Source: an uncultured Chloroflexia bacterium
GTDB lineage: Bacteria; Chloroflexota; Limnocylindria; Limnocylindrales; CSP1-4
Assembly: GCA_963760625.1 (NCBI GenBank)
Contig: CAVXDU010000003.1
Coordinates: 22,127-86,126, forward strand
DNA length: 64,000 nt
Direction: 5' to 3'
Position numbers and translations under genes: made by a program. Positions 249 through 57,014 of the stretch are shown here, one piece after another. Numbering within the stretch: position 1 is the first letter of the stretch; each line of letters begins with the position of its first letter. Under the pieces are notes generated by a model that saw only the letters and a program-made list of their open reading frames with translations, was not told the DNA's origin and did not search any database.

Positions 249-1640
249 TCAGCGCTGGGGCGACGGCTCCGCCGAGCCGGGTCCATCAACCACGGCGTTG
301 GGGTCGAAAAGCTCCGCCGAGTCGCGGACCATGGCCTCGCTGGCATCATCGCCGCCCACCAGGAGGACCTGGCCGTCTGGCAGGAGGGTCGCGGTGTGGT
401 CAGTGCGTGCCTCCCTGAGGGAACCCACGATGGTGAAGGACCCGCCGTCCGGATCCGATAGCTCCACTGTTCCGATCATCTGGTTCGTATCGTCGTCCCC
501 GCCCGTGATGAGCACGCGGCCATCGGGCAGTTGGGTCGCTGCGAACCCCCCACGCGCCTCAGCGAGCGAGCCTGCCGGCGCGAACGTTCCGGAGTTCGGG
601 TCCCATGTCTCGGTGGACGTGTAGCGCACCCAGGCCCATGGGGGGCCTGTGCCTCCTCCGGCAACCAGGACACGGCCGTCCAGCAGAAGCGTCGCTCGAT
701 GGCCGATACGAGCCTGGGCCATGAAGCCGGTCGGGCTGAAGGACATGCTCGCCGGATCCACAGCTCGGCCGAGGCGTGGTCGACCCCGTCGCCAAACCCG
801 CCGACCACCAGGACCCGGCCGTCAGGCAGCAGGGTCGCGGAATGCGCGAAGCGTTGGTCCCCGAGCGTGCCCGCAGGGCTGAAGGACTCGGTCACCGGGT
901 CGAACAGCTCAGCGGAGTCCAGCGCGCTGGGGCCTCCGATGCTGCCTCCGATCACGAGGACCCGGCCGTCGGGCAGGAGCGTGGCGGTGTGGTCGTATCG
1001 TCCCTGGGCCAGCGATCCAACGGCGCGGAAGGTCCCGCTCGCCGCATCCCAGAGCTCGGCCGAGTCGAAGATCCCGAGCTGGTCGTGCCCACCGACGACC
1101 AGGACACGACCATCCTTCAGGAGCGTCGCGGAATGGCGGAGGCGGGGGGTGGTGAGCGCGGCCGCGGGTTCGAAGGTCCGAGTGGCGGGGTCCCACAGCT
1201 CGGTCGCTGTGGACGGCAGGATTCTGGGACCGGCGCCGCCGATCACGAGCACGCGGCCATCGCCCAGCGACGTCGCGGTGTGCCATGACCGGCCCTCGGT
1301 CAACGTCCCGGCCGGGCACGACGTCTGGCCGCACCCTGTCGGCGGTGGGGGACTCGGTAGCAGTGAAGCAGCGGTGACGACAGCCGCGCCCAGGGCAACG
1401 ATGAGTGCCATCGTGATGATCATGAGGCTGGCGAGCCGGAACGTCGGCGAGCCGACGGCGACGCGGGATGAGATACGCATGGGAGGCTCCTTGATGGTCG
1501 CGAGCCAGCGCGGCAGCGGCCGCATCCGGCGCGCCTTGATGAGGATGTCGTCGACGGAGTGGTCGGGCGACAGCGGGACGCGCCACCACCTGCGCGAACT
1601 GGTCGGCGACGAAGCGATCGAAGTCGATGTTGTCGTTCAT
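249..1640 (-). CDS. ECF-coupled membrane protein (putative anti-sigma) with Kelch-repeat propeller; frameshifts near 1585 and 760
   Basis: Repeats R..HTATLLPDGRVLVIGG...SAELFDP; N-terminus MNDNIDFDRF..KEPPM then a TM helix; ATGA overlap with the sigma gene. Confidence 0.85.
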
Positions 1641-2201
1641 GCGGGTCGCTCCGTGACCAGGGCGCCATCGGTCGGGGGTCCTGCGCGCATCGATGCGCGC
1701 ATCGCCTCGAGACCGCGGTGGAGGCGGGACGCTGCCGTCCCGTAGGGGATGTCGATGATCTCGGCCACCTCGGAGACGGGCAGGTCGAGGTAGTAGTGCA
1801 GGACGATGCACGGCGCGCTGGTCGATGTCGAGCCGGTCCAGCTCGCGTCCGAGCCAGTCACGGTCCGCGACACCGACCGAAGCGTCCGGTGCCCCAGCCG
1901 ATCCCGGGTCGAGCGCCACGTGCAGCTCGACCAGGGTCCGGCGCCGGTCCCTGCCGGCGACCTTGTAGCAGGCACGCACCGTGAGTCGGCGGAGCCAGGC
2001 GTCCCAGGCGTCCGGATCACGGAGCGAGCCGACATGCCGCCATGCCAGCAGGAGCGCATCCTGGACCGCATCCTGGGCGCGATCCGAGTCGCGCAGGATG
2101 AGGTTGGCGATGCCGAACAGCCGGGGATGCGATGCCCGCACCAGCTCGGAGTAGGCATCGATGTCTCCGCCCATCGCCTGTTCGACCAGCGCTCGCTGCA
2201 T
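1637..2201 (-). CDS. ECF RNA polymerase sigma factor (frameshift near 1810)
   Basis: Region 2 AQDAVQDALLLAWR..WLRRL; region 4 VLHYYLDLPVSEVAEIIDIPYGTAASRLHRG. Confidence 0.9.
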
Positions 2202-2509
2202 GGACGTCACCGTTTCGGCGCGAAGCACATCTCCGCGCTCTCACACATTAGGAGGCCGCAGGTAGGGCGAACCTATCCCGAGGGCGTGAAGATCGCCTCC
2301 GACAGGCCGGCGATGACTTCGCGGCCTCTGCCGCCGCTGGGCGGTTCAAGCCGCCGGGTTCGGGCTGCCGGATAAGGGTGTTTTTGCGGGCTCGCGCAGC
2401 CCCACCCGCTGGGACCGCTGGCAGGGTTACGCTCTTCGCCCCACATCTCTGAGGCTACCGTCGCGAGTTCGGGACCAATGCGGCTGTGTGGCGGCCGATG
2501 CCCGTTACC

Positions 2510-2580
2510 CGACGCCTGGAAGACCCGCGTGATGGTCGCTGCGTGGTACGGCGTGCCATGCAGCGTCGTGAACATGTGGG
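2510..2580 (-). pseudogene. Tyrosine integrase internal remnant
   Basis: FTTLHGTPYHAATITRVFQ resembles the VFTT..GTP segment preceding the HxLR box of phage integrases. Confidence 0.5.
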
Positions 2581-2707
2581 CGCTTTCGACCCAGCGGAGC
2601 CTGAGACCAGGCGCGCCAGGTCGCTACGACCAGCCAGCGTCCGTCGAAATCACGCAGCCGCATGTCGATCCAGAAGTCGCGGTCGGGGTGGGTGAGGCGG
2701 AGGCGGA

Positions 2708-3073
2708 TCACGGCTGTGGCTCGAACAGCTCGTCGGTCTTCGCGGCCATGATGAGGTCGTTGCGATGCAGCCCCCCGATCTTGTGCGTCCACCAGGAGAC
2801 GGTCACCCTGCCCCATTCGGTCAGCAGCGCCGGATGGTGTCCCTCGCTCTCGGCGAGGGCGCCGACCCGGTCCGTGAACGCCAGCGCCCCGGCGAAGTCC
2901 GGGAACGTGAATACGCGCCGCAGGCGCTTGACGCCGTCGATCTCCACGACCTCCCAGTCGGGGATCTGCGGCCGCTGGTCGGCTAGCTCGGCGTCGGAGA
3001 CCGTCGGTTCGTCCCTTCGGCACGCGACGCAGCGCATCCCCACCAGCGGCTGTCCCAGCGTCTCGGGCGTCAT
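2708..3073 (-). CDS. phhB: 4a-hydroxytetrahydrobiopterin (pterin-4a-carbinolamine) dehydratase
   Basis: [33 protein letters not shown] signature. Confidence 0.93.
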
Positions 3074-3366
3074 TGGGTCAGACCGCAGTCACGACGCATC
3101 TCATGGTGGACAGGGTAACCCGGACCGACCACTGGCGGGGCCCGGCGGGGTGGGAGGAAGAGCGGCGCGCCTGAGCCGATAGGTGACTCACCGAACCGCC
3201 CTTCAAACTCAATGGCGGAGCCGCGCCAGCAGGTCGGTATCGAGTGTGGGCGAGGTCAAACATCGGACAAGTGGCTATCAGGCTGTGGTAGCCTACGCGC
3301 TCACGGCGTGGCGGGCCCGTGCGTTGCGTGGTGACCCAGCGCGCTCCCCTTGGAGGAGGAGGAACG

Positions 3367-4431
3367 ATGTCACGGAAACCGCTACTCGCGGCCTCTGCCC
3401 TGGCTGCGCTCCTGGCTACGGTCGCGGCACCCGCGCTCGCACAGGACGCGGAAACGTCCGACAAGCGCGTCGCCTTCAGCAACAGCTATGCCGCCAACTC
3501 CTGGCGTCAGGCCATGCTGAAGAGCTGGGACGAGCTCTCCAAGCAGGTCGTCCCAGGCGTGGTCGCGGCGGCGGACGTCCGCACGACGGCACAGGACGAC
3601 GCCACGCTCCAGCAGCAGCAGATCAGCGACATGATCCTCGAGGGCTACAACGCCATCGTGATCAACGCCAAGAGCCCCGAGGCACTCAACAGCGTCGTCG
3701 AGGAGGCCTGCGGGCAGGGTATCCAGGTCGTCTCGTTCGACGGCATCGTCACCGCCCCGTGCGCGTATCGCGTCGGGGTGGACTTCGAGGACATGGGCTA
3801 CCAGGAGGTCGTGTACCTCGCGAGCAAGCTTCCCAAGGGAGGCAAGCTGCTCGAGATCCGCGGCAACGCCGGCACGTCGATCGACGAGCAGATCAGCAAG
3901 GGCATCCACAGGGGCGTGGCCGAGTTCCCGCAGTTCGAGATCGTCGGCTCGGTCACCGGCAACTGGGCGCAGGACGTGGCCCAGCAGGCCGTGTCCGGCA
4001 TCCTTCCCAGCCTGCCCCCGGACATCGTCGGCGTCGTGACTCAGGGTGGTGACGGCTACGGCGCCGCCAAGGCCTTCGAGGAAGCCGGTCGGCCGCGGCC
4101 CATCATCATCATGGGCAATCGCCAGGACGAGCTGGCCTGGTGGAAGGAGCAGAAGGACAAGGACGGCTACGAGACCATGTCCTCTTCGATCGCACCGGGC
4201 ACCTCGACCGCCGCCTTCTGGGTCGCTCAGCAGCTGCTCGCTGGCGCCAAGGACGTGCCGCACGACATCATCGTGCCGTATCTCCGCTGGGACCAGGACA
4301 ACTTCGAGGAGGCCTTGGCACAGATGCAGCCGGGCGACGTCGGCACCAAGACGTACACGCAGGAGGAGATGAAGGCCGTCATCGAAGCGGCCAAGAGCCC
4401 GGACGGCGGAGCAAGCCCCGCACCGGGATGA
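3367..4431 (+). CDS. Sugar ABC transporter substrate-binding protein (RbsB-like fold)
   Basis: Signal peptide; [14 protein letters not shown]; strong SD GGAGGAGG; first gene of the ABC operon. Confidence 0.92.
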
Positions 4432-4466
4432 CGCGTCGCGCCGAGCGACTGGGAACGGTCGATCGG

Positions 4467-4502: not shown

Positions 4503-4576
4503 GTCGTGTCGGCGCACCGCAGCGCTGGCATGATGCCCGGGTCCCGGACCGGGCCCCTGAGCGTGGTGGATCGGAG

Positions 4577-6036: not shown

Positions 6037-6038
6037 GC

Positions 6039-23503: not shown

Positions 23504-24412
23504 CTACGCGCGCACGCCCGACAGCTTGGCTGGATCGGCCACGATGTCGATGGCGCGGATCCGCCCGCCCACGATCGCGATGGCGACTACCCCGATGACC
23601 CTCCCGGGCGGACCGACCACGATCCCGGCCCCGCCGTTCACCATGGCCGGGCGGCAGAGCGGCGCGAAGAATCGCGCATTCGACCGCAGGTACGCCGCCA
23701 CATGCTCTGCCCCTGACATCGGTGGTGGCGCCGCCTGCGGACGTCCGCCGGTGTCGATCCGCAGGACGACGTCCGGATCCAGGAGGATCAACAGGCGCCC
23801 GAGGTCGCCGTCACGGGAAGCGGCAAGGAACGCGTCCACGATGGGCCGCTGGACGGCGAGGTCGGCGTCGGGCTCCACCCCTGCGGCCCGCACCCGGCGA
23901 CGGGCACGGCTGGCCAGCTGTCTGCTGGCGGCCGGTGACCGGTCGACCATGGGGCCGATGACATCGAACGGGACACCGAAGACGTCATGGAGCACGAAGG
24001 CCAGGCGTTCTGCCGGGCTCAGGGTCTCGAACACGATGAGCAGGGCGATGCCGATCGTGTCGGCAAGGACCGTGGCCTCCTCGGGTGAGTCGTAGGCCAC
24101 GACGATGGGTTCGGGGAGGGAGAGTCTCGAACTGCCATCGTTGCGTGAACGACGGGCCCGTAGCCTGTCGAGGCAGATGCGCCCGGTGACGGTCGTGAGC
24201 CACGGTCGCAGTGCGGAGCGGTCCTCCGGCGGTCGTCGGTCCAGCCGCAGCCAGCACTCCTGGAGCGCATCCTCGGCCTCCGCCATCGACCCGAGCATCC
24301 GATAGGCCACACCCCGTAGATAGGGTCGATGCCGCTCGAACTCGTGGGCCAGTAGCGAACGAGCTACCTGGTCGTCGCCGGGATCGGCCGAAGGGTCATG
24401 GTCCATGTGCAT
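23504..24412 (-). CDS. ECF sigma factor with SnoaL-like extension (ECF41/SigJ type)
   Basis: AYRMLGSMAEAEDALQE, LPEP, FVLHDVFG, DTGG, DPAKL. Confidence 0.92.
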   Translation of the reverse strand: MHMDHDPSADPGDDQVARSLLAHEFERHRPYLRGVAYRMLGSMAEAEDALQECWLRLDRRPPEDRSALRPWLTTVTGRICLDRLRARRSRNDGSSRLSLPEPIVVAYDSPEEATVLADTIGIALLIVFETLSPAERLAFVLHDVFGVPFDVIGPMVDRSPAASRQLASRARRRVRAAGVEPDADLAVQRPIVDAFLAASRDGDLGRLLILLDPDVVLRIDTGGRPQAAPPPMSGAEHVAAYLRSNARFFAPLCRPAMVNGGAGIVVGPPGRVIGVVAIAIVGGRIRAIDIVADPAKLSGVRA

Positions 24413-24434
24413 CCCTATCACGAAGCGAACCGGC

Positions 24435-24463
24435 CACGATGTGACAGCGGTCGTCACATCGTG
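24435..24463. promoter_or_regulatory. Back-to-back ECF41-type promoters (inverted repeat CACGATGTGAC-N7-GTCACATCGTG)
   Basis: GTCACA -35 on both strands, each followed about 17 nt later by CGTG. Confidence 0.7.
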
Positions 24464-24532
24464 CCCGCTGACTACGTGTACCACACGGACGGCGCCGACA
24501 TCCCGGCACCGCCACCATCACGGAGTCGATCG

Positions 24533-38318: not shown

Positions 38319-39653
38319 TTAGGGAACGACCATCCGAATGCGATGGTTGGCGCTGTCGCCGATGAGCAGCGCACCGTCGCGGTCCACGACGGAGGTGGGG
38401 CCGTTCAGTTGGGCCTCGGTCGCCGGACCGCAGTCCCCGCTGTAGTGCCCAGTTCCGTTGAGTTGTCCCACTCCGCTGCCGGCCACCGTCGTGATGATCC
38501 CGGTAGCGTCGACCTTGCGGACATCCCCGTTGTTCCAGTCGGCGACATAGAGGTCGCCCGCCGTGTCGACGGCAAGGCCGTAGGGGCTGGACTCGATGGT
38601 GGCATCGACCGCCGGGCCAGCGTCGCCGGAATGACCCGGGATGCCGGTCCCGACGACGGTCGAGATGGTCCCGGACGGGTCCACCTTGCGGATCCGGTAG
38701 TTGCCGCCGTCGCCGAGGTACACGCTACCGTCCGGTGCGACCGCGACGCCGACTTGCCCGTACGGCCAGTTCCCGAACGTCGCCTCCGTGGCGGAACCCC
38801 CGTCGCCAGAGAAGCCCGTCGCTCCGGTGCCGGCGAACGCGTGGATCACCCCCGCGGGATCGATGGTGCGGTACCTGTTGGTGTCGTCGAAATACAGCGA
38901 GCCGTCGGGCCCGATGGCCAGCGTGGCCGCACCGATCTGGGCATCGATCGCCGGTCCGCCGTCACCGGTCGATCCCTGGACACCGGTCCCCGCGATGGTC
39001 GTAATGGTCCCGGCGGGGTCGATCCTCTTGATGGTCGAGACGTCCGTCAGATAGAGGTTGCCCGCCGGATCGAAGGCGAGGCCGCTCGGGCCGGCGAGCC
39101 CGGATGCGAACGTCTCGATGACACCGTCGGGCCGGACGCGCCGCACGGTCGTGCCGTCACCGAAGTAGACGCTGCCGGAACCGTCGATGGCCAGACCCTG
39201 GCCCATCTGGATCATCGCGGCCGTGGCTGGGCCGCCGTCACCGGACGAGCCGGCGACGCCGGTCCCGGCGATCGTGGCGATGTCGCCGCTCTCGAGGGTG
39301 GTGCCGGGTGGGCAGGCCGTCGGCAGCATCGCGAGCGCCGGCAGGGCATCCCTCCCATGAGGTGGGCCGTCCCGGAGTACCTGCGAGCCGACGATGGCGG
39401 CGCTCGCCGCGAGTGCGACCGCCAGCAGGCCGATCAGGAGCAGTACCAGCGCCATCCGTAACGGCGGCGCCGCCGTGAAGGTCGTGGTTCGAACAGTCAT
39501 CGGTAGCCACCTTTCGAGGAAGGTCCACGCAGGCCGCTGCCGCGTGCGGCTGGTCTGCGCGAGGATGTCGTCGCGGAGGTCCGGCGTGCTGGTCCCGGCG
39601 AGATCGTTCAGGCCAGCACTCAATCGGGTCCCCAGTCGGTCGTCGAATGTCAT
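38319..39653 (-). CDS. ECF-coupled membrane protein (putative anti-sigma) with NHL-repeat propeller
   Basis: TRQRPAWTFLERWLPM then a TM helix; repeats AGTG..G.SGDGGPA; ATGA overlap. Confidence 0.88.
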   Translation of the reverse strand: MTFDDRLGTRLSAGLNDLAGTSTPDLRDDILAQTSRTRQRPAWTFLERWLPMTVRTTTFTAAPPLRMALVLLLIGLLAVALAASAAIVGSQVLRDGPPHGRDALPALAMLPTACPPGTTLESGDIATIAGTGVAGSSGDGGPATAAMIQMGQGLAIDGSGSVYFGDGTTVRRVRPDGVIETFASGLAGPSGLAFDPAGNLYLTDVSTIKRIDPAGTITTIAGTGVQGSTGDGGPAIDAQIGAATLAIGPDGSLYFDDTNRYRTIDPAGVIHAFAGTGATGFSGDGGSATEATFGNWPYGQVGVAVAPDGSVYLGDGGNYRIRKVDPSGTISTVVGTGIPGHSGDAGPAVDATIESSPYGLAVDTAGDLYVADWNNGDVRKVDATGIITTVAGSGVGQLNGTGHYSGDCGPATEAQLNGPTSVVDRDGALLIGDSANHRIRMVVP

Positions 39654-40213
39654 GCCGGACGTCCCATGGGTGCGCCAGCGGGGCCGTCGACGTCGTCGCC
39701 GACGGCCGTGAAGCGCATGGCCGTGAGTGATCGATAGAGGCGGGACGACGCCGTACCGAGCGGGATGCCGAGGGCGTCCGCCGCCTCGGGCAGCGTCATC
39801 TCCAGATAGAAACGCAGCACGATGATCGTGCGCTGCTCCGGGTCAAGCCGGGCGAGGGCGCGGTCGAGATAGTCACGGTCAGCGACACGGGCCGACGCAT
39901 CGGCGACGGGCACGTCATCGAGGGGGTTCAGCTCCACCTCGATGACCCGCCGGCGCCGCCGCCGCGACATGTCGATGCAGGAACGTACGGTGAGACGATG
40001 CAGCCAGGCATCAAACCGGTCCGGGTCGCGCAACCCGGGCAGGTTCCGCCAGGCGAGCACCAACGCCTCCTGGACCGCGTCTCGCGCGAGCTCCGAGTCC
40101 CGGAGGATGAGACGGGCAGCCAGTTCCAGCCGCGCGACGGACGCATCGACGAGCACACCGAAGGCGTCATGATCGCCTCGGCCTGCCCGCTCGACGAGAC
40201 CCCGCTGGTCCAC
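39650..40213 (-). CDS. ECF RNA polymerase sigma factor
   Basis: ARDAVQEALVLAWRNLPGLRDPDRFDAWL; GIPLGTASSRL. Confidence 0.93.
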   Translation of the reverse strand: MDQRGLVERAGRGDHDAFGVLVDASVARLELAARLILRDSELARDAVQEALVLAWRNLPGLRDPDRFDAWLHRLTVRSCIDMSRRRRRRVIEVELNPLDDVPVADASARVADRDYLDRALARLDPEQRTIIVLRFYLEMTLPEAADALGIPLGTASSRLYRSLTAMRFTAVGDDVDGPAGAPMGRPA

Positions 40214-40543
40214 GCTCGCCCTTTCATACGGCGCGACGCTTGGTCGCACTCATACGGTATGACGTCCGGAGCGACCGAATCACTGCAGACAATGTTGCGC
40301 TCTGACGGTGGCGACGACGCGACCAGACATCCGTGGCGTTCGGCTGGCCATCACGGGCAATCGGCTCCCGCAATGCCCGGGCGATGCCGCAGGCAGTGTG
40401 TGACACCGTATGGGGCCCTGCGTGACGACGCGGGACGTCGTACGGCGATCCGGGGTCCGAGGCGCGACGAGCTGCCCTCCGCTCGCTCGACCACCGCCGC
40501 GCCGCATGACCGCTGCGGGCGGTGACGTGCCATCGCCCGCGGT

Positions 40544-41415: not shown

Positions 41416-42204
41416 TCACGCAGGGCTCCTGCCGGCCGGACTCTCGAGAGCCGGTGGCTCCGGCAGCGGCGGGAGGTCACCGGAGACGATGAGACCGACG
41501 ACATCCTGGGCGTTGCCTCCGGCGTCCTTGTGGACGAGGATGGCCGAGAGCCCTGCATAACCGCCCTCCCCGACGCAGACGTAGGTCGCCCCGGTCGTCA
41601 GGAGTGTCCCGCCATTGCCGAGGCCTTTGTAAAGGTTGGTGTTCGAGCACGCCCAGCCGCCGCCGTCGTTCTGCAGATATTCGGCCTCCATCTCGACCGT
41701 GATGGTGCCTGCATCCGTCCGGTAGGCGTCGGCGTTCCACCGCGCCACCGCCTCACCCGTGAGGCGTGGGTCACTGGACGTCCATGTCCGCGGCTTGCAC
41801 TCGTCGTTCCAGTGGTGGGTGACATCGCCGTCGACGACGGGGGGCGGGTTGGAGCAGTCCGGGGCGGGCTCGATCTGGCCGGTGACCCATGTCGGGGCGA
41901 CGGGCGGGACCGGGACCGGGCTCGGCAGCAGCGAGGCGCCGGCGATCACGGCACCGGCGAGGGCGAGCGTCAGGACGGCCGTGACGGCCACGACCAGGGC
42001 GATGCGGAGCGTCGGCGAGCCGACGACGAGCTGGGATCGGTAGCGCATGGGGGGCTCCTTGAGGCTGGTGAGCCAGGGCGGACGCTGCCGCCTGCGGCTC
42101 GTGGCGGAGGCGATGTCGGCGCGCAACTGGTCGGGGGCCCGCGACGTGGGTGTCTCGGCCAGCAGGCGTTCGAGGAGCGGCTCGACGCGCACGTCTCGAG
42201 TCAT
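41416..42204 (-). CDS. ECF-coupled membrane protein (putative anti-sigma), unknown extracellular domain
   Basis: RRRQRPPWLTSLKEPPM..GSPTLR then a TM helix; SDPRLTGE; ATGA overlap. Confidence 0.82.
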   Translation of the reverse strand: MTRDVRVEPLLERLLAETPTSRAPDQLRADIASATSRRRQRPPWLTSLKEPPMRYRSQLVVGSPTLRIALVVAVTAVLTLALAGAVIAGASLLPSPVPVPPVAPTWVTGQIEPAPDCSNPPPVVDGDVTHHWNDECKPRTWTSSDPRLTGEAVARWNADAYRTDAGTITVEMEAEYLQNDGGGWACSNTNLYKGLGNGGTLLTTGATYVCVGEGGYAGLSAILVHKDAGGNAQDVVGLIVSGDLPPLPEPPALESPAGRSPA

Positions 42205-42764
42205 GGCGTGTGCACCGGAATGGCATGTTTCGGGGCCTCAGGCTCGGCCTCGAGGGCGAGCCTGAGGGCCCGCAGCCCACGGCTCAGGCGGGACTTCGCC
42301 GTGCCCACCGCGATCCCCAGGATCTCGGCCACGTCGCTGATGGGGAAGCCGAGATAGAAGTGGGTGACGATGGCTGCGCGCTGCTCGACCGGCAGCCGCC
42401 CGAGCTCGTGCTCGAGACGGTCGCGCTCGACGAATGGCAGCGCGATGTCATCGACATGGTCGATGCCGGCGTCCGGCATCGCCTGGAGCTCGACCAACGT
42501 CCGGCGTCGGTCCCGTTTCGCGTGGCGGTAGCAGGACCAGACCGTCAGGCGGTAGAGCCAGGCATCCCAGGCGTCCGGTTCGCGGAGGGCGGGCAGGTCC
42601 CGCCAGGCCGCGACCAGCGCTTCCTGGACGGCATCCTGGGCCTGGTCAGCGTCGTGCAGGATGAGGTTGGCGACGGTGTACAGCCGGTCGACCGAGCCGT
42701 CGACCAGGCGCGTGAAGGCGTCATGATCGCCCCGCTTCGCCCGGTCCACCAGCTCTCGCTGCAT
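42201..42764 (-). CDS. ECF RNA polymerase sigma factor
   Basis: AQDAVQEALVAAWRDLPALREPDAWDAWL; GTAKSRLSRG. Confidence 0.93.
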   Translation of the reverse strand: MQRELVDRAKRGDHDAFTRLVDGSVDRLYTVANLILHDADQAQDAVQEALVAAWRDLPALREPDAWDAWLYRLTVWSCYRHAKRDRRRTLVELQAMPDAGIDHVDDIALPFVERDRLEHELGRLPVEQRAAIVTHFYLGFPISDVAEILGIAVGTAKSRLSRGLRALRLALEAEPEAPKHAIPVHTP

Positions 42765-47710: not shown

Positions 47711-50700
47711 TCACGCATCGGCGAGAAGCAGGTCGCGAGCTTCGAGGATGTCGGGTGTGCCCTGGTCCTCGGTCAGCGTCTCGAGGATGTCGCGGAGCCG
47801 GCGCGACCTGTCAACGCGTACGGCTGGGTCCGTATCTCGGGCGCTGCGATAGAGCCGGATAGCGGCACGCAGCTCGGACGTCCGCGCACCCCAGGCGTGG
47901 GCGACCTCCAGGGCACGCTCGTACGCGGCTTCCGCGGCCGCGGCCCCGGTAGCGAGCAGGAGGTCACCCCGGACGATGTACAAGTCTGGCATCACGGGTG
48001 CCAAGGCAAGTGCCTCGTCGACGGCACCGAGACCTTCGGCGATCCGATCGCCCTGTACACATGCCTGGGCCTTGAGTTGCAGCAGGAACGGCCAGAAGAC
48101 CGGCGGCGTCCGCAGGTCTCGGTACTGCGCGAGACCCTCGGAGATCCACCGGAACCCCTCGTCCCCCACGTTCAGAGCTACCGCCGACGCGCCGAGGAGC
48201 GCTGTGCCGACGGCCTTCCAGACGTGGAGCTCATGCTCCTCGGCGACCTCGATGACCTGGACCGATAACGCCCGAGCCTCTGCGGGTTCCCCCCGCCACA
48301 GTCGCAGTAGGCCAGCATGGAACAGCGCATAGCCGGACGTAGACGGATGGGCCAGCGCGCGCGCCGCTGCCGCCGCCTGCTGGGAACGTTCCAGGGACCG
48401 GTCGGTCCGTCCCAGCCACCAGAGGAGGAGCGACAAAGCGGTCAGGCTCACGACCCATGGGTTGGGCCCCAGACGGAACGGCACCTCGCGACCGGCATTC
48501 GCCTCGAACATCCGGACGCTGGTCTCCACGTCGGGGATGCTGTCCTCGAGCCTGCCTCCGAAGCCGCGGCTGGTGCCCAGCACAAGATGGCCGTCGGCGC
48601 TCATCAGCGGATCGTCCTGGAGTTCCCCCAGCCGAACGATCCGTCGTCCGAGGTCCGCGGCCTTGGCATGTTCATTCCGGAGCATGTAGAAGCTGGCCAG
48701 ACCGCGCAGCACCGGGTAGGCCTGGGGCACCTCGGCCCCCTTGAGCGAGCCCAGCAGCCCCTCGTACGCCGTCTGCACCTCGGTGGTGTACCCCTGCATG
48801 GCGGTGAGTGCGCGTGCCTGATTGCTGCGAAGGGTGATCGCGAGGAGGGTGCGCTCGGGAGTCGTCGGCAGGACCTCCAGCAGGGCCAGGACGTCGCTGG
48901 CGAGGTCCGTCAACCCCCGGTACCAGCCATTGGCGTCATGGAGTGGCCACAGGCCCCGCATGAACACCTCGAGTCGCTCCAGGTCGTGTCCCTCGGTGCT
49001 GAGCCGCCAGGCTGCCCGCAGGTTCTCCAACTCACGGGCCAGTTCCCGCAACGCTGTCGAACGCTCGGGTCCTGCCGTCTTCAACCCGCGCTGCGAGGCC
49101 CACTGTGCGTAGTAGGCGGCATGGGCCGAACGTGCTCGCGACGCTAGCTCGGCATCGGTATCCAGTCGCTCGGTCGCATATTCCTGCACGGACTCGAGCA
49201 TCTCGAACCGCGGCTCCTCTCCTTCCCGATCGCTTTGCCGCAGGAGGCTCTTGTCGACGAGTGAGATCAGGCCATCGATGGGGTCGATGCCGGGAACACG
49301 ATCGGCAATGCTGCGTGCCACGCTCTCGACGGCTTCCACGTCGGCGCCGTGGAAGCAGGCCAGCACCTCGAACAGTCGCTGCTCCTGGGGTGTCAGCAGC
49401 TGGTAGCTCCACTCGATCGTGGCGCGAAGGGTCTGCTGGCGTTCCGGGAGCTCGCGGGTCCCGCTGCCCAGGATGCTCAGTCGGCTGCCGAGTCGGTCGA
49501 GCAGGGCCTCGAGCGAGAAGACCCGCAGCCGTGCCGTCGCGAGCTCGATCGCCAGCGGCAGCCCCTCCAGTCGGCGGCAGATCTCTGCGACGGTGGCGGC
49601 GTTGTCATCGGTGACCCGGAAGTCCGGCCTGACAGCCCGCGCGCGTTCGACGAACAGTCGCACCGCCTCGAAGCCCTCGACCCGCTCAGCGGTGGCGACC
49701 TTCAGCGTCGCCTCCGGCAGGCCCATCGGCGGCACGGCAAAGAGGCGCTCGCCACTGACGTGCAGAGCCTCCCGGCTCGTCACCAGCAGCTTCAGCTCGG
49801 GGCAGTCCTTAAGGAGTCGGGCGAGGATGGGGGACGCACTCGTGACCTGCTCGAAGTTGTCCATCACGGTGAGCAGCTGCTGATGTCCGATCTGTTCGGT
49901 CAGCTCGGCGAGCTGCGCATCCTCGCTGGCATCCGGGAACCCCAGCTCGCGGTTGATCGTCGTGAGCAACGTGGTCGAGTCGCGCGCCGCGGACAGATCG
50001 ATGAACACCGCGCCTGCTGAGAAGTGGTCCTGCGCATCCCTGGCCGCGTGCAGCGCCAGTCTCGTCTTGCCGATCCCCCCAGGTCCCGTGAGCGTCAGCA
50101 GCCGGACCGCCTTGTCCTCGAGGTACCTTCCGATGCGCAGCTGCTCCGCGGTGCGGCCGACGAAGACCGATGGCTCCTCAGGAAGGGTCCGGACACGCTC
50201 GCCCATCGTGGTGAGCGGCGGAAACCTCACCGGCAACTCCGGATGCAGGAGCTGGAAGACGCGCTCCGGTCGCGACAAGTCCCTCAGGCGGTGCTCCCCC
50301 AGGTCGCGCAGGGACGCGCCCTCGGGAAGCCGATCCATGACCAGGGCCGCCGTGGGGTTGGAGAGCAGCGCCTGGCCACCGTGGCCCGCCGCCATGATGC
50401 GAGCGGCGCGGTTCACGGCCTGCCCGTGGTAATCGCTCCCGTCACCGGATGCCTCGCCGACGTGGAGGCCCATGCGGACCCGGAGCGGCCCGGTCTCGCC
50501 CCATGACTCGCCTTGGAGCGCGATCTGGGCGGTGAGACACGCGGTCACTGCATTGCGCGCGGTATCGAACACCGCCATGACGCCGTCACCGGTCATCTTG
50601 ACGACCGCCCCATCTGCGCCCTGCACCGCGTGGCGAAGGATCGCGTCATGTCGAGCGAGGGACGCCCGCATCCCATCCGGGTATCGCTCCCACAGCCGCG

Positions 50701-50839
50701 TGCTGCCCTCCACATCGGTGAACAGGAACGCGAGCATCCTGGAGTTGGTAGGTTCGTCCTGGTCGACGGTCACGATTCCGATCGGGCTGGGGTCATGGCC
50801 GAGGGACTCGGCGACGGGTCGTCCGACCGTCCCCGCCAT
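47711..50839 (-). CDS. Class III adenylate/guanylate cyclase - STAND NTPase - TPR protein
   Basis: FTDVEGST, GDG, NRAAR; GPGGIGKT; DNFE; GLPLAIELA. Confidence 0.93.
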   Translation of the reverse strand: MAGTVGRPVAESLGHDPSPIGIVTVDQDEPTNSRMLAFLFTDVEGSTRLWERYPDGMRASLARHDAILRHAVQGADGAVVKMTGDGVMAVFDTARNAVTACLTAQIALQGESWGETGPLRVRMGLHVGEASGDGSDYHGQAVNRAARIMAAGHGGQALLSNPTAALVMDRLPEGASLRDLGEHRLRDLSRPERVFQLLHPELPVRFPPLTTMGERVRTLPEEPSVFVGRTAEQLRIGRYLEDKAVRLLTLTGPGGIGKTRLALHAARDAQDHFSAGAVFIDLSAARDSTTLLTTINRELGFPDASEDAQLAELTEQIGHQQLLTVMDNFEQVTSASPILARLLKDCPELKLLVTSREALHVSGERLFAVPPMGLPEATLKVATAERVEGFEAVRLFVERARAVRPDFRVTDDNAATVAEICRRLEGLPLAIELATARLRVFSLEALLDRLGSRLSILGSGTRELPERQQTLRATIEWSYQLLTPQEQRLFEVLACFHGADVEAVESVARSIADRVPGIDPIDGLISLVDKSLLRQSDREGEEPRFEMLESVQEYATERLDTDAELASRARSAHAAYYAQWASQRGLKTAGPERSTALRELARELENLRAAWRLSTEGHDLERLEVFMRGLWPLHDANGWYRGLTDLASDVLALLEVLPTTPERTLLAITLRSNQARALTAMQGYTTEVQTAYEGLLGSLKGAEVPQAYPVLRGLASFYMLRNEHAKAADLGRRIVRLGELQDDPLMSADGHLVLGTSRGFGGRLEDSIPDVETSVRMFEANAGREVPFRLGPNPWVVSLTALSLLLWWLGRTDRSLERSQQAAAAARALAHPSTSGYALFHAGLLRLWRGEPAEARALSVQVIEVAEEHELHVWKAVGTALLGASAVALNVGDEGFRWISEGLAQYRDLRTPPVFWPFLLQLKAQACVQGDRIAEGLGAVDEALALAPVMPDLYIVRGDLLLATGAAAAEAAYERALEVAHAWGARTSELRAAIRLYRSARDTDPAVRVDRSRRLRDILETLTEDQGTPDILEARDLLLADA

Positions 50840-50995
50840 CGTAGCGGCGTTGGAGACCCCCCGGTACCGCGCACATATGCGAAGGCGGTCGCCATTGCCT
50901 CGACCGGTTACTCGTCACGGATCCCTTGCTGGCGGACCCGAACGAGTTTCCCTGGAGATGTCACCTTTCGGGCCGAATCGGTCCCTTAGTAGGTG

Positions 50996-51479
50996 ATGGA
51001 CACCACGATGGTCGTGATCGACTGGAACCAGAGCGTCGAGGCCCTGTACCGTCAGGACTCCGATCGTCTGTGGCGGGCGGTGCGTGCCTTCGCGGGCGAC
51101 CCGGACATCGCCAGCGAGGCGGTCGCCGAAGCCTACGCCCAGGCTCTTCGCCGTGGACCGGCGATGCGCGATCCGGCGGCCTGGATCTGGCGTAGCGCGT
51201 TCCACATCGCAGCCGGCGCCCTGAAGTCACGTCGCTCCGGCTGACGAGGCCTCGTCGGGTCCCGGCGAGCACCACGACCGTTACGAGGACCCGGACCTCC
51301 TGGCAGCGCTTCGGCAGCTGCCCGACGCGCAGCGCGCGGCGGTGATCCTCTTCTACTACGCCGACCTTCCGGTCGGTGAGATCGCGGCCCGCCTCGGCTC
51401 GAACGGGCTCGCGGTGCGGGCGAACCTCAGCCGTGGGCGCAGACGACTGCACGACCTCCTGGGTGGTGGACATGACTGA
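50996..51479 (+). CDS. ECF RNA polymerase sigma factor (frameshift ~51245)
   Basis: ASEAVAEAYAQ, DPAAWIW; LPDAQRAAVILFYYADLPVGEIA. Confidence 0.85.
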
Positions 51480-53004
51480 CCTCCACGAGCGCTTCCGTGC
51501 GCTCGACCACGTCCCTGCGCCGTATCTCTGGAACGAGATCGAGCGGCGTGCCGGGCAGCCCGCGACCGCCATGTCCGTCGTGGTGTCGTCGCCCATCCAA
51601 CGGCGGCCGCGGCTCGCTCCCCACTCGAGGTCGCACGCCGTGCAGATGACGCTCAAGGTCGCAACGGTCGCCGTCATCGTGCTTGCCGTCGGCCTCGGGC
51701 TCGGCCGGTTGCTGCCGAGTGCCGTCACTGACGTCGGCGTCGATCCATCCCCAACGTCCAGCCCGGTGGCGCCGGCGATCCCCCTCCGGGAGGGATGGCT
51801 GCCTGCAGGCACCTATGTCTCGACACCCTTCGCGCAGCCCGGCGGGCTGGGGCTGTGCCTCACGCCGCCCCAGCCCGGGTGCGTCGAGTCGACCGAGGAC
51901 GACGGCATCCGGTTCACGCTGACCCTCCCCGACGGCTGGGCAGGCGCTCCCCATGGAGGCGTGGAGGAGCGCGATATCGGGCCGAACATCTCCTTCGAGC
52001 GGGGCGGATGGCTCCATGTCGATCCCTGCGGCGGTTCGGGCTCGCCGCTCGGCGCTCCGGAGATCCCGGTCGGACCGACCGTCGACGACTTCGTTGCGGC
52101 GCTCGTGGACCACCCGCTGCTGGTCGTGTCAACGCCGGTGGACGTCACTTTGGGCGGCTACTCCGGGACCTACGTGGACCTGACAGTCTCCCCGGACGTC
52201 GATCAGCACCGCCCCCTGGACCTCCCGTGCAATGGGTTCAAACCGTGGTCACCGGGCATCTACAAGGAGGCAGGGCTGTGGATCCTGGACGTCGACGGGC
52301 ACCGGGTGATCGTCAGGAGCGAAGAGGACCCGGAGGATTCGCCGGAGGCCCGGGCGCAGCTCCAGGCAGTCATCGATTCGATCACGATCGACGTCCAGCC
52401 GGCGGACCCACTGGCGACACCCGGTGCCCGTCTCCCGTGCCAGGGAGGCGAGACGACGCTGACGGCCGGACGGTACGTCATCCCAGGCCCGGGCACCTTC
52501 TGCTCCAACCAGTCGCGCGGCTGGCCGGACAAGACGGTCACCATCGAGCTTCCCGCTGGCTGGGTGTATCGGGCTCCTGTATACGGCAGTTGGCTCTACC
52601 GCGATTCGGCCAAGCTCCAGATCGGGGTCGTCGACCACGTCTATGCCGATCCATGCCACGCGGGATCGGCCGTGGGACCGACACAGGACGACCTGATCGC
52701 CGCGCTGCGTGGTGTCCAGACCACCACGCCCGACGCGATCACGCTGGATGGGTACTCCGGTGTGCGGATGGACCTCGCGATCCCGACCGATCCCCCCGAC
52801 TGCGAGCCCCAGCGACTGTGGGACGCCGAGACCGACAACGGCAGGTTCGGACCCCGGGCTGAGCCTGGATGGATCCATCGGATGTGGATCCTCGACGTCG
52901 AGGGGGTGCGCTTCGTCCTGGACGCCTCTCGTGCCCCGGACGCCCCGCCCGAGGTGCAGGCGGAGCTGGACGCGATCGTCGAGTCCGTCGACTTCGAGCC
53001 GTAA
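51472..53004 (+). CDS. ECF-coupled membrane protein with two copies of an unassigned extracellular domain
   Basis: MTDLHERF..., TM helix; repeats TL.GYSG..DL, WILDV.G.R, L.A...SI. Confidence 0.82.
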   Translation: MTDLHERFRALDHVPAPYLWNEIERRAGQPATAMSVVVSSPIQRRPRLAPHSRSHAVQMTLKVATVAVIVLAVGLGLGRLLPSAVTDVGVDPSPTSSPVAPAIPLREGWLPAGTYVSTPFAQPGGLGLCLTPPQPGCVESTEDDGIRFTLTLPDGWAGAPHGGVEERDIGPNISFERGGWLHVDPCGGSGSPLGAPEIPVGPTVDDFVAALVDHPLLVVSTPVDVTLGGYSGTYVDLTVSPDVDQHRPLDLPCNGFKPWSPGIYKEAGLWILDVDGHRVIVRSEEDPEDSPEARAQLQAVIDSITIDVQPADPLATPGARLPCQGGETTLTAGRYVIPGPGTFCSNQSRGWPDKTVTIELPAGWVYRAPVYGSWLYRDSAKLQIGVVDHVYADPCHAGSAVGPTQDDLIAALRGVQTTTPDAITLDGYSGVRMDLAIPTDPPDCEPQRLWDAETDNGRFGPRAEPGWIHRMWILDVEGVRFVLDASRAPDAPPEVQAELDAIVESVDFEP

Positions 53005-53130
53005 CGGGTCGCAGATGGCGGCTCGCCGAGCCCGGTGACGCCATGCGGTGGATACGATAGTCCACCAGATGGGCTCGACCCGGGAGATTGGATGGCACGA
53101 CCGGGTCGTCAATCCCGCGAGTCCGCGAGG

Positions 53131-53315
53131 TTCGATTGGACGTGGTGCGAGGCCCGGCGTTCGACGTGATCGTCGTCGGTGCTGGAGCCGCGGGATCTGT
53201 CGTCGCGCGGCAGCTGGTTGAGACGGGCGACCGATCGGTCCTGCTGCTCGAGGCCGGACCCGATCATCGCGCAGCCATCCCTGCCGAATGGCGCGACGGG
53301 TGGCGACTGCCCCAG
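53131..53315 (+). pseudogene. GMC oxidoreductase 5' remnant
   Basis: FDVIVVGAGAAGSVVARQL...VLLLEAGPD, then similarity is lost. Confidence 0.72.
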
Positions 53316-53341
53316 GGCCGTAATCGTCCTCGCGACAGGAA

Positions 53342-53397
53342 ACCCGCCCGGCACGGCCTCCATCACCCGCGCGACTTCGCGCGCGCTACTGTTCGAG
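53342..53397 (-). pseudogene. Integrase C-terminal scar overlapping the stop of the TolB-like gene
   Basis: LEQ*R..REVARVMEAVPGG. Confidence 0.6.
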
Positions 53398-54541
53398 CCG
53401 CTGCCAACTCGCGAGTCCGACGTTGCCCGTGGACTCAAGGGCAGCGGCGGGAGCCAGACCTGCTGCGTCCACGATCACAAGCGTCGCGGACGGACCGAAT
53501 GTCTCATCCACCGAGTAGCCAAGCAACATCGAGCCGTCCGGCGACCAGACCGGGAGGAGCCCCGCCACGGCCGGATGCTCAAGTGCCACGGGATCGCTCC
53601 CATCCGGGCCGGCCACCACGAACCTGCCGACGACCGGGGCTTCCCTGGACCTGAACCAGGCGAGCCGAGATGCGTCGGGGGACGAGACTGCCCAGTACTC
53701 GTTCTCGGGTCCTCCCACGAGCATCATCTCGCCGCTGCCGTCCGCGTTCACGACCCAGACATCGCCGTTGCCGCTGGATGCCAGGAAGAACAGGATCCGA
53801 TGTCCATCCGGGGACCACTGTGGCTCGGCGAAGTCCACGCCGGACCCTGGGACGTTCGTCAGACGGTGAGGATCGTCGCCATCGGACCCGATCAGGTAGA
53901 CCCCCGCGTCCCCGACCGATCTGCCGCCCCGATAGGCGATCGTTCGTCCGTCAGGAGACCACGTCGGGTCCTCGCCGTCGGTCAGCGAGATCGGCAACCC
54001 ACGCTCATCGATTCGCGCGATGTCTACGACCGATGTCCCAGCCGCGATATGGGAATACGCGAGTCGGTTGTTGTCCGGTGACCACGCGGGCCGCGTCTCG
54101 GGAGGCGAGCCAGGCTCGTTGTTGGATAGCTTCAAGCCGGAGGCGATGATCCGAGGATCGGAACCGTCGGCTTCCATCACGATGAGCGATGTCGTAGGGG
54201 CATTGGCCACGGACAGGAATGCCTCGAAGGTGAATTCGATCCGCACCCGTCGGCCCGGGCATAGACCAGAAGGCGATGCGCTTCCCATCGGGAGACCAGG
54301 TCGGCGTGATGTCGATGGAGGACCCACTGGTCAGGCGTGCCCGACCAGTGCCGTCTGCGTTGGCGACCCAGATGTCACCGTTCGAATCAAATGCGATGAG
54401 GCCGTTCCTCCCGAGCCCGGGGCTCATCGGCGACGAGGACGGCACGTGCTGCTGTTGAGCGAAGGCCAGGCCGGTCGCGACAGCGGTCGCAACGAACGCC
54501 ATCGCCAAGGCGACGCTAGCCCGTGACCTGGACTTGGACAT
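53386..54541 (-). CDS. Secreted TolB/PD40 beta-propeller protein (frameshift ~54255)
   Basis: Signal peptide; GRNGLIAF; repeated P.WSPDG. Confidence 0.85.
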
Positions 54542-54601
54542 CTCACTCCTCACGTGCGATCGCTCGTTGTTCGCCCGCGGGCTCGCCGCCCCGACAGCCT
54601 G

Positions 54602-54642
54602 TTGATCATCGTGTCCTGGGTCGAATCCCAGCCGGCTCACCA
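54602..54642 (+). tRNA. Second copy of the tRNA-Lys 3' fragment
   Basis: Matches 25349-25390 with 1 mismatch and 1 gap. Confidence 0.75.
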
Positions 54643-54660
54643 GTATGTGCTCGCGACTGG

Positions 54661-57014
54661 TCAATCGGGCTGCGTGTCGAATCCCAGGACCCACCATTCC
54701 CGACGCCCCTCCTGCTCGTTCACGAGGAAGAGGGCATCCCCAACGCCGATCATCGAAAGGCTAGTGAGGTCGCTCGGGAGGTCCAGTCCCGAGAGGTCCA
54801 ACTCCGTCCAGGTGCGCCCGTCAGGGGACGCCCAAAGTGCCCTTCCTCCTCCGACCCACTGCATCGCCACGAAGCCGGAGCCTGCCCGGACGATGGCCGA
54901 TTCCTGCGGCGGCGATTCGAGGACCTGATCCCAGTGCAGGCCATCGGCGGACCGCCACGCCTTCGCGATCTGGTGCTGGGTCCCGGGTTCCTGGTACTCG
55001 GCAAAGAACGCATACTCGGTACCGTCGATGAGCCGACGGTCCGTCGGGGACACGTAGAATGTCCCGCCGCTCGCACCCTCGCGTGATGTCCCATGGACCG
55101 AGCTCGGTCCAGACCCCGGTCTCATCGAGTCGCCACGCCACGACCGGCCCGCTCGGGTCCGCGAGCGCGAGGGCGACGATGCCGTGCGCCGACGCCAGCC
55201 ATAGCGACTCCATCCTGCTGCCGCATGATGGAGTCGGGCGTGTCGATCGGCACGAGCCGGTCCCCCTCCAGCATGGCCATCACGTGTCCACTCGGTGGCC
55301 CGTCCCGTACCCAGCCCCTGACATCCTCGAGCGTGACACCCTCGAGCGTCGTCACGAGCGTCCCATCACTCTCATCGGTCACACGGAGTCCTCCAGGGAC
55401 CGCCTCGAAGCGTTGCCGTACGTTCCGGGTCGTCGCGGCCCCGGGCGGGGATGGAGAACAGGCCCGGCTCCAACTCCTCGGCGGGCCAGGAGCTGCCCGC
55501 ATGCCAGCCCAGCGACGCGAATGGCTCGCTGGCCTCCAGGTCGATCTCAACGGCGGCCACGGCTTCCGTGCTGGCGCCGCTCAACCACCCCAGCTCCCAC
55601 CCGATGGCAGGGGGCCCCGCCGGGATGACACCGCTCACCTCGATCGGCGTCCAGGCGCCGTCTGTCGATCGTCGCCATAGCCGCTTCGCGTCTGGTCCCG
55701 AGTCACTGTCAGACCACCACTCACTCTCGCTTGACCAGTCCCACCACGAGCCACCCTCCAGGGGCACGTCGATCGGCTCGGACGTCCAGCGCATGCCGTC
55801 CTCGGACGTCCACATCCGGTTTCGGTCGACATCCACGAAACGTGCGCCCGGACGCGGCCAGTTCCTCCGGCAGGGTCGCGGTGCCATCCGACAGGTGGAC
55901 CCAGCGAGCCGGGCCGATGGGCGTGTCCACGACGCCCGATGTGCGCCCCAGCGGGGATGTCCGTCCCCAGTGTCGGCACTCCTTCGGCACGGTCGACGAG
56001 TGCAGTCACTGACTCGGCGGGCATGAGGGCATCCGACGGAGGAGCTGCGGACGCCGCGGCTTCTGGTGATTCGCTGAGCTGGATCGAGTCCACGATGCTC
56101 TGCAGCTGTGCCTTGATCTCTGGCGCCGTGGCCGCATGGTCGATGGCCTGGACCACGACCCGGAGGCCGTCGACGTCGAGGACCCAGAGGTGCCAGAGTT
56201 CGCCTGGATCCTGGGCGTAGTACCAGGGGTTCCAGGGCCGATACGCGTCGCAACCGGTGAGATCGGTCGGCACCTGGAGTTCCAGAGTACGTCCCGGTGT
56301 ATCCCGCGAGCGTGACATCGACCGGCTCGGTCACATCGAGCAGGGGGTGATCGACGAGCGCGCTGACGAAATCGTCGACGCTGGGGCCGACTGGGATGTC
56401 CGGTGGGCCGTCGTTGACACAGGGGTCGTCGGCGAGCGAGGCCCCACGGACGAAGATCAGGGCCGCCCCGTCCGTGGCCGACCCGCCGGTGAACAGGACC
56501 CCGCTCGAACCACTTCCCTCCCAGCCGTCCGGCACGGTAGAACGTGATGCGCACGTCGTCGTCGACGGACCGGTCGAGGCAATCAGCCTGGTCCAGGCAG
56601 GCGTCGTTGCCGGGAGCCGCGAAGGGCGTCGTCACGTAGGTGCCCGCGTTCAAGGGCTCCCAGACCTCTCGGAGGGGAACTGGCTCGGGGGTGGCGGAGG
56701 GTGAAGGGGCCGGAAACCGCGCCGAAGTCGGTAGATCGGGGCAGGATGGTGACGCCGACGGCCAGGGCGATCGCGGCGACGACGGCGAACTTGAGCACGT
56801 TGGCCATGGCATTGGACCTCGTTGGGTGGGATGGTCGACCGACGAGCGTGCGGACCATCGGTCGCCCGGGGTGATGCCTGGCCTCCGCGCCGTCGCGCAC
56901 CTGCGACGCGGCCTCGTAGCTGGACATGGCGGTGGCCTCGATCTCCACTCGTCGATCCACGAGGAAGCCGACGATGGCGCGGTCGAGTCGTTCGTCGGAG
57001 AGGTGGTGGTCCAT
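54661..57014 (-). CDS. ECF-coupled membrane protein: unassigned domain plus Asp-box-like region; many frameshifts (possible pseudogene or two genes)
   Basis: PTRSNAMANVLKFAVVAA TM; IPVGPSVDDFVSALVDHP; WTSEDGMRW, WRSADGLHW. Confidence 0.65.

Follow-up and report, generated by a model that had tools for sequence, protein, structure and literature searches.

Can a gene that follows an extracytoplasmic function (ECF) sigma factor gene specify two proteins, one with a cytoplasmic domain and one that begins immediately before the membrane helix? This question is raised by a stretch of 64,000 nucleotides from an uncultured Chloroflexia bacterium (GenBank assembly GCA_963760625.1, contig CAVXDU010000003.1, positions 22,127 to 86,126; hereafter the window), which has a G+C content of 69% and belongs to a genome of 3.75 Mb in 16 contigs. 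The window carries five ECF-type sigma genes, each with a same-strand partner gene directly downstream, and a sequence-only reading had proposed that every partner conceals an in-frame Shine-Dalgarno (SD) sequence and start codon ahead of its helix, so that a full-length and a short product are made from one gene. Our comparisons make it probable, at roughly 0.7, that ribosomes do start at the internal site and so produce a short isoform that lacks the cytoplasmic domain. The last cytoplasmic codons are constrained at the nucleotide level in the domain family to which sites 1-3 belong and in a related junction type, here called subtype 3. The two-isoform proposal holds up best where the internal start is supported, namely in the ERW family and in subtype 3; it is weak at sites 4 and 5, and at the KEPPM junctions the SD sequence is given by preferred codons. 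The five sites are listed below, with dG as the predicted pairing energy with the 3' end of the genome's own 16S rRNA, read from contig C8.

Site 1, 1478-1492, minus strand: AAGGAG (1492-1487), six-nucleotide spacer cctccc, ATG (1480-1478); KEPPM subtype; dG -7.5 kcal/mol.
Site 2, 39498-39515, minus strand: GAAAGGTGG (GAA AGG TGG, 39515-39507), spacer ctaccg (CTA CCG), ATG (39500-39498); ERW subtype; dG -11.4 kcal/mol.
Site 3, 42046-42060, minus strand: AAGGAG (42060-42055), six-nucleotide spacer cccccc, ATG (42048-42046); KEPPM subtype; dG -7.5 kcal/mol.
Site 4, 51627-51648, plus strand: GAGGT (51627-51631), eight nucleotides, GTG (51640-51642), then ATG (51646-51648); dG -7.1 kcal/mol for the GTG and -3.2 for the ATG.
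Site 5, 56805-56820, minus strand: GAGGT (56820-56816), eight nucleotides, ATG (56807-56805); dG -7.1 kcal/mol.

All five arrangements were recovered at these coordinates and in the reading frame of the gene that follows the respective ECF sigma gene, as were the basic-then-hydrophobic stretch that had been described after each internal start and the AGG arginine codon at three of the five sites (2, 4 and 5). The peptides spanning the sites had been taken for unrelated types, and this was not borne out: sites 1-3 represent subtypes of one N-terminal domain (N-domain) family, and the junction of sites 4 and 5 aligns with subtype 3. Because sites 1-3 share one domain family and sites 4 and 5 lie in paralogues, five of five does not amount to five independent events. 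The background is also appreciable. Among 1307 open reading frames (ORFs) of the same genome with high G+C at third codon positions, comprising 309,148 codons, 8% of internal in-frame ATG and GTG codons reach -7.5, and a run of 20 codons contains one or more such starts 9% of the time (3% for ATG only; 1.3% at -11). A single site is therefore unremarkable, and sites 4 and 5, at -7.1, fall slightly short of this cut. It is at the level of the family that the signal emerges. Among the 55 sigma segments of the genome, an internal ATG at -7.5 or below leading into the helix was found in 17 of 17 evaluable partners of the N-domain family and in 3 of 16 other partners. The SD-like element lies 6-22 codons ahead of the helix.

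The genome itself contains about 25 segments that are related to the partner 2 and 3 N-domain. In an alignment of 18 of them (A1) only three columns are invariant: a Trp, an Arg in the helix region, and the Met of the internal start. The junctions fall into three subtypes, namely ERW (R-x-R-Q-R-P-x-W-x-x-P-E-R-W-[IL]-P-M), KEPPM (W-L-A-L-I-K-E-P-P-M) and subtype 3 (Q-R-R-x-x-W-P-A-[RW]-R-x-x-x-M-N). In each of them the last cytoplasmic codons spell the complement of the 16S 3' end, as GAAAGGTGG, AAGGAG or GGAGG, with an in-frame ATG or GTG 6-9 nucleotides downstream. The word GAAAGG is the exact complement of the terminal CCUUUC of the 16S tail, and AGGTG complements its CACCU. Complementarity to the genome's own 16S 3' end was found at spacers of 6-9 nucleotides in the ERW type and in subtype 3.

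The sequence-only reading had proposed as a test whether the SD is conserved at synonymous positions and whether the Met or Val codon is kept, and the ERW type provides the clearest case. The two codons that create the SD are uncommon in this genome, GAA accounting for 15% of Glu codons, AGG for 7% of Arg codons and GAA-AGG for 10 of 2093 Glu-Arg pairs. In a first set of 35 unique ERW sequences from 12 genomes, both GAA and AGG were present in 35 of 35; the conserved arginines at -14 and -12 were never AGG, all four CGN codons being used there, and the proline at -11 used four codons. This set was enlarged by a codon-blind DNA pattern scan of a public genome collection, in which any Glu codon and any Arg codon were accepted. 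Matches with too little flanking sequence were left out, which leaves 78 among the matches listed, and 45 of these were judged to be family members from the upstream part only. Among the matches listed, 42 of the 45 family members have GAA AGG with a start codon two codons after TGG; the remaining three have GAA CGT with a start, GAG CGG without a start, and GAA AGG in front of an ATG that a one-base indel seems to disrupt. Nine non-family matches among those listed, from other phyla or without family context, use a CGN arginine codon in eight of nine cases and have a start at that position in none.

The 12-genome set and the scan matches listed were pooled into 106 unique ERW sequences. Nine matches judged to be chance occurrences were left out (L124, L126, L129, L131, L155, L162, L197, L199 and L201); seven of them are from other phyla, and the other two, L162 (no helix) and L201 (motif interrupted by a stop), bear the title uncultured Anaerolineaceae. 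With the scan matches listed included in this way, the Glu codon is GAA in 104 of 106 and the Arg codon AGG in 103 of 106, as against AGG in 0 of 191 for the conserved arginines at -14 and -12, only 8-10 codons upstream. Pairwise codon difference in the same pooled matches is 65-69% at Arg -14, Arg -12 and Pro -11, compared with 4-6% at the two SD codons. The codon six nucleotides downstream of the SD is ATG in 85, GTG in 19 and TGG in 2 of the sequences listed, with no others; valine in this column is thus GTG in 19 of 19 among the matches listed, although GTG makes up 43% of Val codons genome-wide. The spacer in between avoids G: Leu -2 is CTG in 0 of 78 among the matches listed, as against 51% of Leu codons in general, and Pro -1 is mostly CCC (at site 2 these two codons lie at 39501-39506). 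The G-poor spacer is a further nucleotide-level constraint. For a single ERW member the recoding probability is only about 0.05-0.08, roughly the frequency of AGG; the strength of the case lies in the family-wide counts and not in any one gene.

Subtype 3 arrives at the same arrangement with different residues. Counting unique sequences only, and skipping rows gapped at the start column, 35 subtype-3 members have ATG in 29, GTG in 3 and another codon in 3 (GTC, CGG and ACC). Arg -4 is AGG in 31 of 35, and position -5, whether Trp or Arg, is always TGG (18) or CGG (13) in 31 of 35, so that the DNA reads GGAGG nine bases before the start and the pattern as a whole is (T/C)GG AGG, three codons, then ATG or GTG. 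Several variants likewise keep the purine run although their residues have changed. In the genome itself, LRGGTM is encoded by TTG AGA GGT GGA ACC ATG; its counterpart in a congener, LEGDTM, by CTC GAA GGA GAC ACC ATG; a GRW variant by GGA AGG TGG; and LREAPM by AGG GAG GCT CCG ATG. Across the whole family, counted in the same way (n = 73), the start column holds ATG in 60, GTG in 5 and another codon in 8. The 65 members with ATG or GTG have a mean dG of -9.9 kcal/mol, compared with -6.3 for synonymous recodings, and the 8 members without a start have a mean of -6.45 kcal/mol, compared with -5.1. Members that have lost the start are mostly without the SD as well, as seen in a paralogue from the genome itself (TCA CGG TGG CTG CCC CCG) and in L043, L037, L176 and L260. 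The synonymous-site test thus came out in favour of an internal start for the ERW family of sites 1-3 and for subtype 3; it could not decide the matter for KEPPM, and the other-genus homologues of partner 4 did not support it.

The messenger RNA (mRNA) around the internal codon resembles that of a start in one further respect. The 63 bases from -30 to +33 fold less stably than do synonymous recodings in which SD and start are left intact (mean z +0.8, with lower stability than the recodings in 80% of 65), and random internal ATG or GTG codons used as controls give z -0.39. The reduction in structure is modest, and the sequences are related. Ordinary gene starts offer a yardstick for the pairing energies, and their use of the SD seems moderate: 26% of 93 near-unambiguous starts are at -7.5 or below, compared with 8% of internal codons, although this set is crude because the assembly contains many frame changes. 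Genuine starts of the lineage resemble the internal site. At the upstream starts of the partners, GGGAGG is frequent at a distance of about nine nucleotides, and 13 of 21 are at -7.5 or below; the idea that the long start has no SD and relies only on coupling to the sigma stop was dropped on account of this count. The upstream starts of partners 2 and 3 in the window are weak, at -4.8 and -5.4. Stand-alone signal-like N-termini in the genome reach -7.5 in 9 of 18 cases, several with GGAGG and a C-rich spacer. A working internal start is the simplest reading of this set of findings: a 16S-complementary run of rare codons, a fixed spacer, a position that admits almost only ATG or GTG, the joint loss of SD and start, and weak local structure.

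The genes in which these sites lie are the following, where E values without a library name refer to a hidden Markov model (HMM) built for the purpose, that for the sigma genes from alignment A7.

ECF sigma gene 1, 1637-2228, minus strand: two overlapping frames with a frame change near 1812; sigma HMM E 2.4e-44 and 3.1e-16.
Partner gene 1, 249-1640, minus strand: N-domain (HMM E 1.4e-20), transmembrane helix, Kelch repeats (Pfam).
ECF sigma gene 2, 39650-40249, minus strand: 199 residues, intact; Pfam Sigma70_r2 and r4_2, NCBIfam sigma70-ECF.
Partner gene 2, 38319-39653, minus strand: 444 residues, intact; 51-residue N-domain (HMM E 2e-28), transmembrane helix, NHL beta-propeller (TEN_NHL, E 3.8e-37).
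ECF sigma gene 3, 42201-42764, minus strand: 187 residues, intact; recognised by Pfam and NCBIfam.
Partner gene 3, 41416-42204, minus strand: 262 residues, intact; N-domain (HMM E 9e-28), transmembrane helix, C-terminal domain.
ECF sigma gene 4, 50993-51479, plus strand: two frames, with an in-frame stop at 51242-51244 and region 4 in the other frame up to the TGA at 51477-51479; E 6.2e-5 and 1.6e-6.
Partner gene 4, 51472-53004, plus strand: 510 residues, intact; a different N-domain (MTDLHERFRALD...), QRR junction, transmembrane helix, C-terminal domain.
ECF sigma gene 5, 57014-57576, minus strand: two frames with a change near 57200; E 1.1e-12 and 9.6e-14.
Partner gene 5, 55372-57017, minus strand: paralogue of partner 4, in at least four frame pieces.

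The sigma genes are of ECF type in having regions 2 and 4 only (Pfam Sigma70_r2 and r4_2; NCBIfam sigma70-ECF above its cut-off), and their partners share a single-pass layout of a cytoplasmic N-domain of about 50 residues, a hydrophobic helix and a variable outer domain (NHL, Kelch or no known family). The sigma stop and partner start overlap as ATGA or GTGA at 20 of 24 loci and in window pairs 1-3: the start of partner 1 (ATG, 1640-1638) overlaps the stop of sigma gene 1 as ATGA, and the overlap is 4 nucleotides in pairs 2 and 3. The C-terminal domain of partner 3 belongs to no Pfam or NCBIfam family, and an ESM Atlas search returned only hypothetical Chloroflexota clusters; for the outer domain of partner 4, searches of Pfam, NCBIfam, PDB sequences and the ESM Atlas gave no name. 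Frame changes interrupt five of the ten sigma and partner genes (sigma genes 1, 4 and 5 and partners 1 and 5). Partner 1 has at least two, at about 1590 and about 770, and the successive parts of partner 5 lie on ORFs 56583-57017, 56006-56812, 55372-56535 and 55635-56318. The interrupted genes look like assembly indel errors rather than decay, either being possible; the completeness score of 60%, despite 3.75 Mb in only 16 contigs, fits many such errors.

A sixth sigma-like gene at 23504-24484 (minus strand, 326 residues) has a long C-terminal extension and may be a sigma factor with a fused regulatory domain. It is followed by no partner, so that the earlier wording, which spoke of all five partner genes, is accurate for the window. 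The sigma profile finds 55 segments that reach the end of region 4 in the 3.75-Mb genome, a very high ECF load, some of them being pieces of frame-shifted genes. Adjoining pair 4 is an ORF of 1042 residues (47711-50839, minus strand), the N-terminal part of which looks like a nucleotide cyclase motif; an ATPase and a repeat region follow, as read from the translation.

The N-domain family is of restricted distribution. It occurs in 6 of 12 genomes of the window's own genus, in 10 of 23 genomes of its taxonomic family when alignment A1 is used (8 of 23 with A8), and in 5 of 16 genomes of a second taxonomic family of the same class with A1 (13 of 16 with A8); outside these two taxonomic families, nearly no matches were obtained among 401 genomes sampled from the phylum. 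The KEPPM subtype is narrower still and hardly extends beyond the window's own genus: those of its members that come from other genomes belong to that genus as well, and a class-level search matched 3 of 150 other genomes, none with a clear KEPPM junction. In relatives, subtype-3 partner genes stand in tandem arrays with a spacing of about 1.5-2.3 kb (G078:C2:304038-311035; G248:C31:434-3851), which suggests local duplication of sigma-partner cassettes. One family member, L160 (GAA AGG TGG TTT CCC ATG), comes from a metagenome-assembled genome labelled Candidatus Dormiibacterota, that is, another phylum; this could be a matter of binning or labelling, or of gene transfer.

How, then, might such a gene work? 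Ribosomes would initiate at the internal codon as well as at the upstream start that overlaps the sigma stop. The long form would carry the N-domain of about 50 residues, the presumed sigma-binding part, a role assigned from gene order and coupling only. The short form would have lost this domain and would begin with a few basic residues and a hydrophobic segment, acting as a signal anchor or a signal peptide. Its role is a matter of speculation. A decoy or a partner in sensing and proteolysis is one idea, competition with the long form (over ligands, partners or proteases) another, and the short form could also be the working protein that is exported. A more specific version, which we consider doubtful, makes one ORF both sensor and output: the long form, produced in step with sigma by way of the overlapping stop and start, would hold sigma at the membrane, and the short form would be an ordinary exported protein which, in competition for the ligands, partners or proteases of the long form, sets the switch's threshold. 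An exported protein and the regulator reporting on it would then share helix and outer domain. If this were true, with about 20 such genes and 55 ECF-type sigma segments, the design would be a main signalling architecture of this class of Chloroflexota.

Several observations weigh against the internal start, or against its generality. The feature is concentrated in the N-domain family and is not general to ECF partners. No known anti-sigma domain was recognised in the family: 18 N-domains gave no Pfam match at E up to 1, and the best hit among PDB sequences (E 0.41) was to a ribosomal protein and not meaningful; NCBIfam and ESM Atlas searches likewise gave no name for the N-domain. For KEPPM (sites 1 and 3), preferred codons produce AAG GAG in any case (recoding probability about 0.8), so that nothing beyond amino-acid constraint can be shown there, and what speaks for these two sites is their homology to the ERW type, together with the invariant Met. 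The sequences are relatives, and the counts therefore overstate their independence. Pairing at the ERW site (-11.4) exceeds that at 98% of the 93 near-unambiguous gene starts, and the exact word GAAAGG is absent among those 93. One subtype-3 member has GTC at the start column. Joint loss has its exceptions in L087 and L086, which keep an SD-like run with no start at the aligned column, and the Met is kept with a weak or absent SD in L058 (-1.5), L090 (-2.5), L262 and L272-L274; in such distant members the Met may also matter to the protein. Finally, sites 4 and 5 offer only GAGGT, weak at -7.1, and nothing better than -6.1 precedes the helix in L096, L097, L099 and L103, homologues of the partner 4 and 5 N-domain from other genera, which have no comparable site.

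These last points give substance to an explanation that applies to sites 4 and 5 only, namely that a weak GAGGT before Val or Met is a chance or lineage-specific match common to two recent paralogues. We regard this as a serious possibility, if somewhat short of even odds, as -7.1 does not reach a cut that 8% of internal starts do reach, partners 4 and 5 are paralogues, and homologues with the same N-domain lack the site. On the other side, although the N-domain of partners 4 and 5 differs from that of the sites 1-3 family, their junction aligns with subtype 3 (QRR ... AGG, three codons, GTG or ATG, then x-x-LK-x-A), and it also aligns with that of a paralogue in the same genome that reads GGG AGG TTC CAG ACG ATG, with a dG of -12.1.

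For the family as a whole, three further explanations were considered, each of which leaves at least one observation unexplained. The purine-rich element could be an SD-like pause site that slows ribosomes before the helix, timing targeting or sigma assembly, with the Met merely a conserved residue. Strong anti-SD pairing and a position 6-22 codons ahead of the helix would suit such a role, and the members that keep Met with a weak SD fit a protein role of this residue. A pause site is nevertheless improbable, since it accounts neither for a position 6-9 nucleotides downstream that admits almost only ATG or GTG (104 of 106 ERW sequences and all 19 valines as GTG, among the matches listed) nor for the mostly joint loss of SD and start, nor for local mRNA structure that is reduced as at real starts. 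The helix would, moreover, still be unmade at the pause, so that targeting would gain nothing. SD-like pausing has itself been questioned by later ribosome-profiling work.

Alternatively, the SD and ATG could be the relic start of an ancestral exported protein upstream of which a short cytoplasmic module was fused, with little or no present use. The sequence after the Met does look like an ordinary exported-protein N-terminus (e.g., MNTYAKLAIAAAAVVV), the SD and spacer resemble those of the stand-alone signal-like N-termini of the same genome, and the same N-module is joined to many different outer domains. A relic would decay, however, yet the rare codons are kept in more than 100 sequences from many genera and two taxonomic families; fusion may account for the origin of the element but not for its maintenance, and we hold a mere relic to be quite improbable. 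The least credible account, that only a protein motif (ERW-x-P-M, KEPPM or WR-xxx-M) is selected and that recent ancestry or gene conversion among paralogues supplied the codons and an accidental SD likeness, can draw on the confinement of every case to one family in one class of one phylum, on the single codons of Trp and Met and on the preferred codons of KEPPM, but it is very improbable given that adjoining conserved residues vary synonymously in 65-69% of pairs while GAA and AGG do not, that other conserved Arg codons are AGG in 0 of 191 among the matches listed, and that variants with other residues keep the purine run, once in another frame register.

Two other candidates were set aside. 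A frameshift-stimulating element was rejected on reading the sequences, which contain no slippery heptamer, and would leave the invariant start codon unexplained. An internal promoter was also considered; codons -17 to -6 show no other synonymous constraint, and no promoter search was made.

A working internal start would have consequences beyond this locus. If the short form is made, these sigma switches gain a third player inside the regulator gene, one that is invisible to current annotation. Gene calling would be affected as well, as a gene finder may choose either start of such genes. Genes with an internal start and two protein products have been described as isolated examples, mostly from experiments in model organisms, and include IF2, ClpB and ArcB-C. 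The present case was found from sequence alone, across a whole signalling-gene family of uncultured soil Chloroflexota, and its synonymous-site signal is unusually clean. A full-text literature search, with subscription journals and supplements outside its scope, brought up no account of an internal start in the gene of an anti-sigma factor or ECF partner, in line with the sequence-only reading, which knew of no description of one.

Among known systems, the partners may be set beside the RseA/RsiW-type ECF anti-sigma factors, single-pass proteins under the control of regulated proteolysis. Common to both are a gene directly after sigma, an overlapping stop and start, and a protein with a short N-terminus in the cytoplasm, a single helix and, outside, a domain that resembles a sensor. 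They differ in that searches of Pfam and the PDB link the N-domain of the partners to no known anti-sigma domain; we know of no dual-start feature in RseA/RsiW-type proteins, and the literature search showed none. Two starts within one membrane-protein gene are familiar from the dual-start motif of the phage lambda holin gene S (S105/S107), where forms with different cytoplasmic N-termini also behave differently; in lambda the spacing is two codons and the change is in one charge, whereas here the two starts are separated by about 50 codons and a whole domain. Alternative starts within an ECF sigma regulatory module have been described for Mycobacterium tuberculosis SigE, for which the portions of the report drawn on here describe isoforms shortened through internal starts, with an internal promoter and non-canonical codons involved (PMC10027907). 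There the sigma factor itself is shortened; in the present genes the shortening would affect the partner, and both SD and start codon are canonical.

In-frame internal starts are an accepted route to two proteins per bacterial gene, with CheA, CcmM and a type III sorting-platform protein named in the portions of a 2026 review considered here, in which 'anti-sigma' was not found as a term (PMC13515050). The likeness to CheA-L/CheA-S and CcmM58/35, as those portions present them, is close: one ORF with an internal SD and in-frame ATG or GTG, and products that differ by an N-terminal domain. Measured against the same portions, the genes described here differ in being single-pass ECF sigma partners known from sequence alone, in that the cut falls exactly between the cytoplasmic module and the helix, so that the short form would start signal-like, and in that the feature is kept across a multi-paralogue family with about 20 copies in the genome itself.

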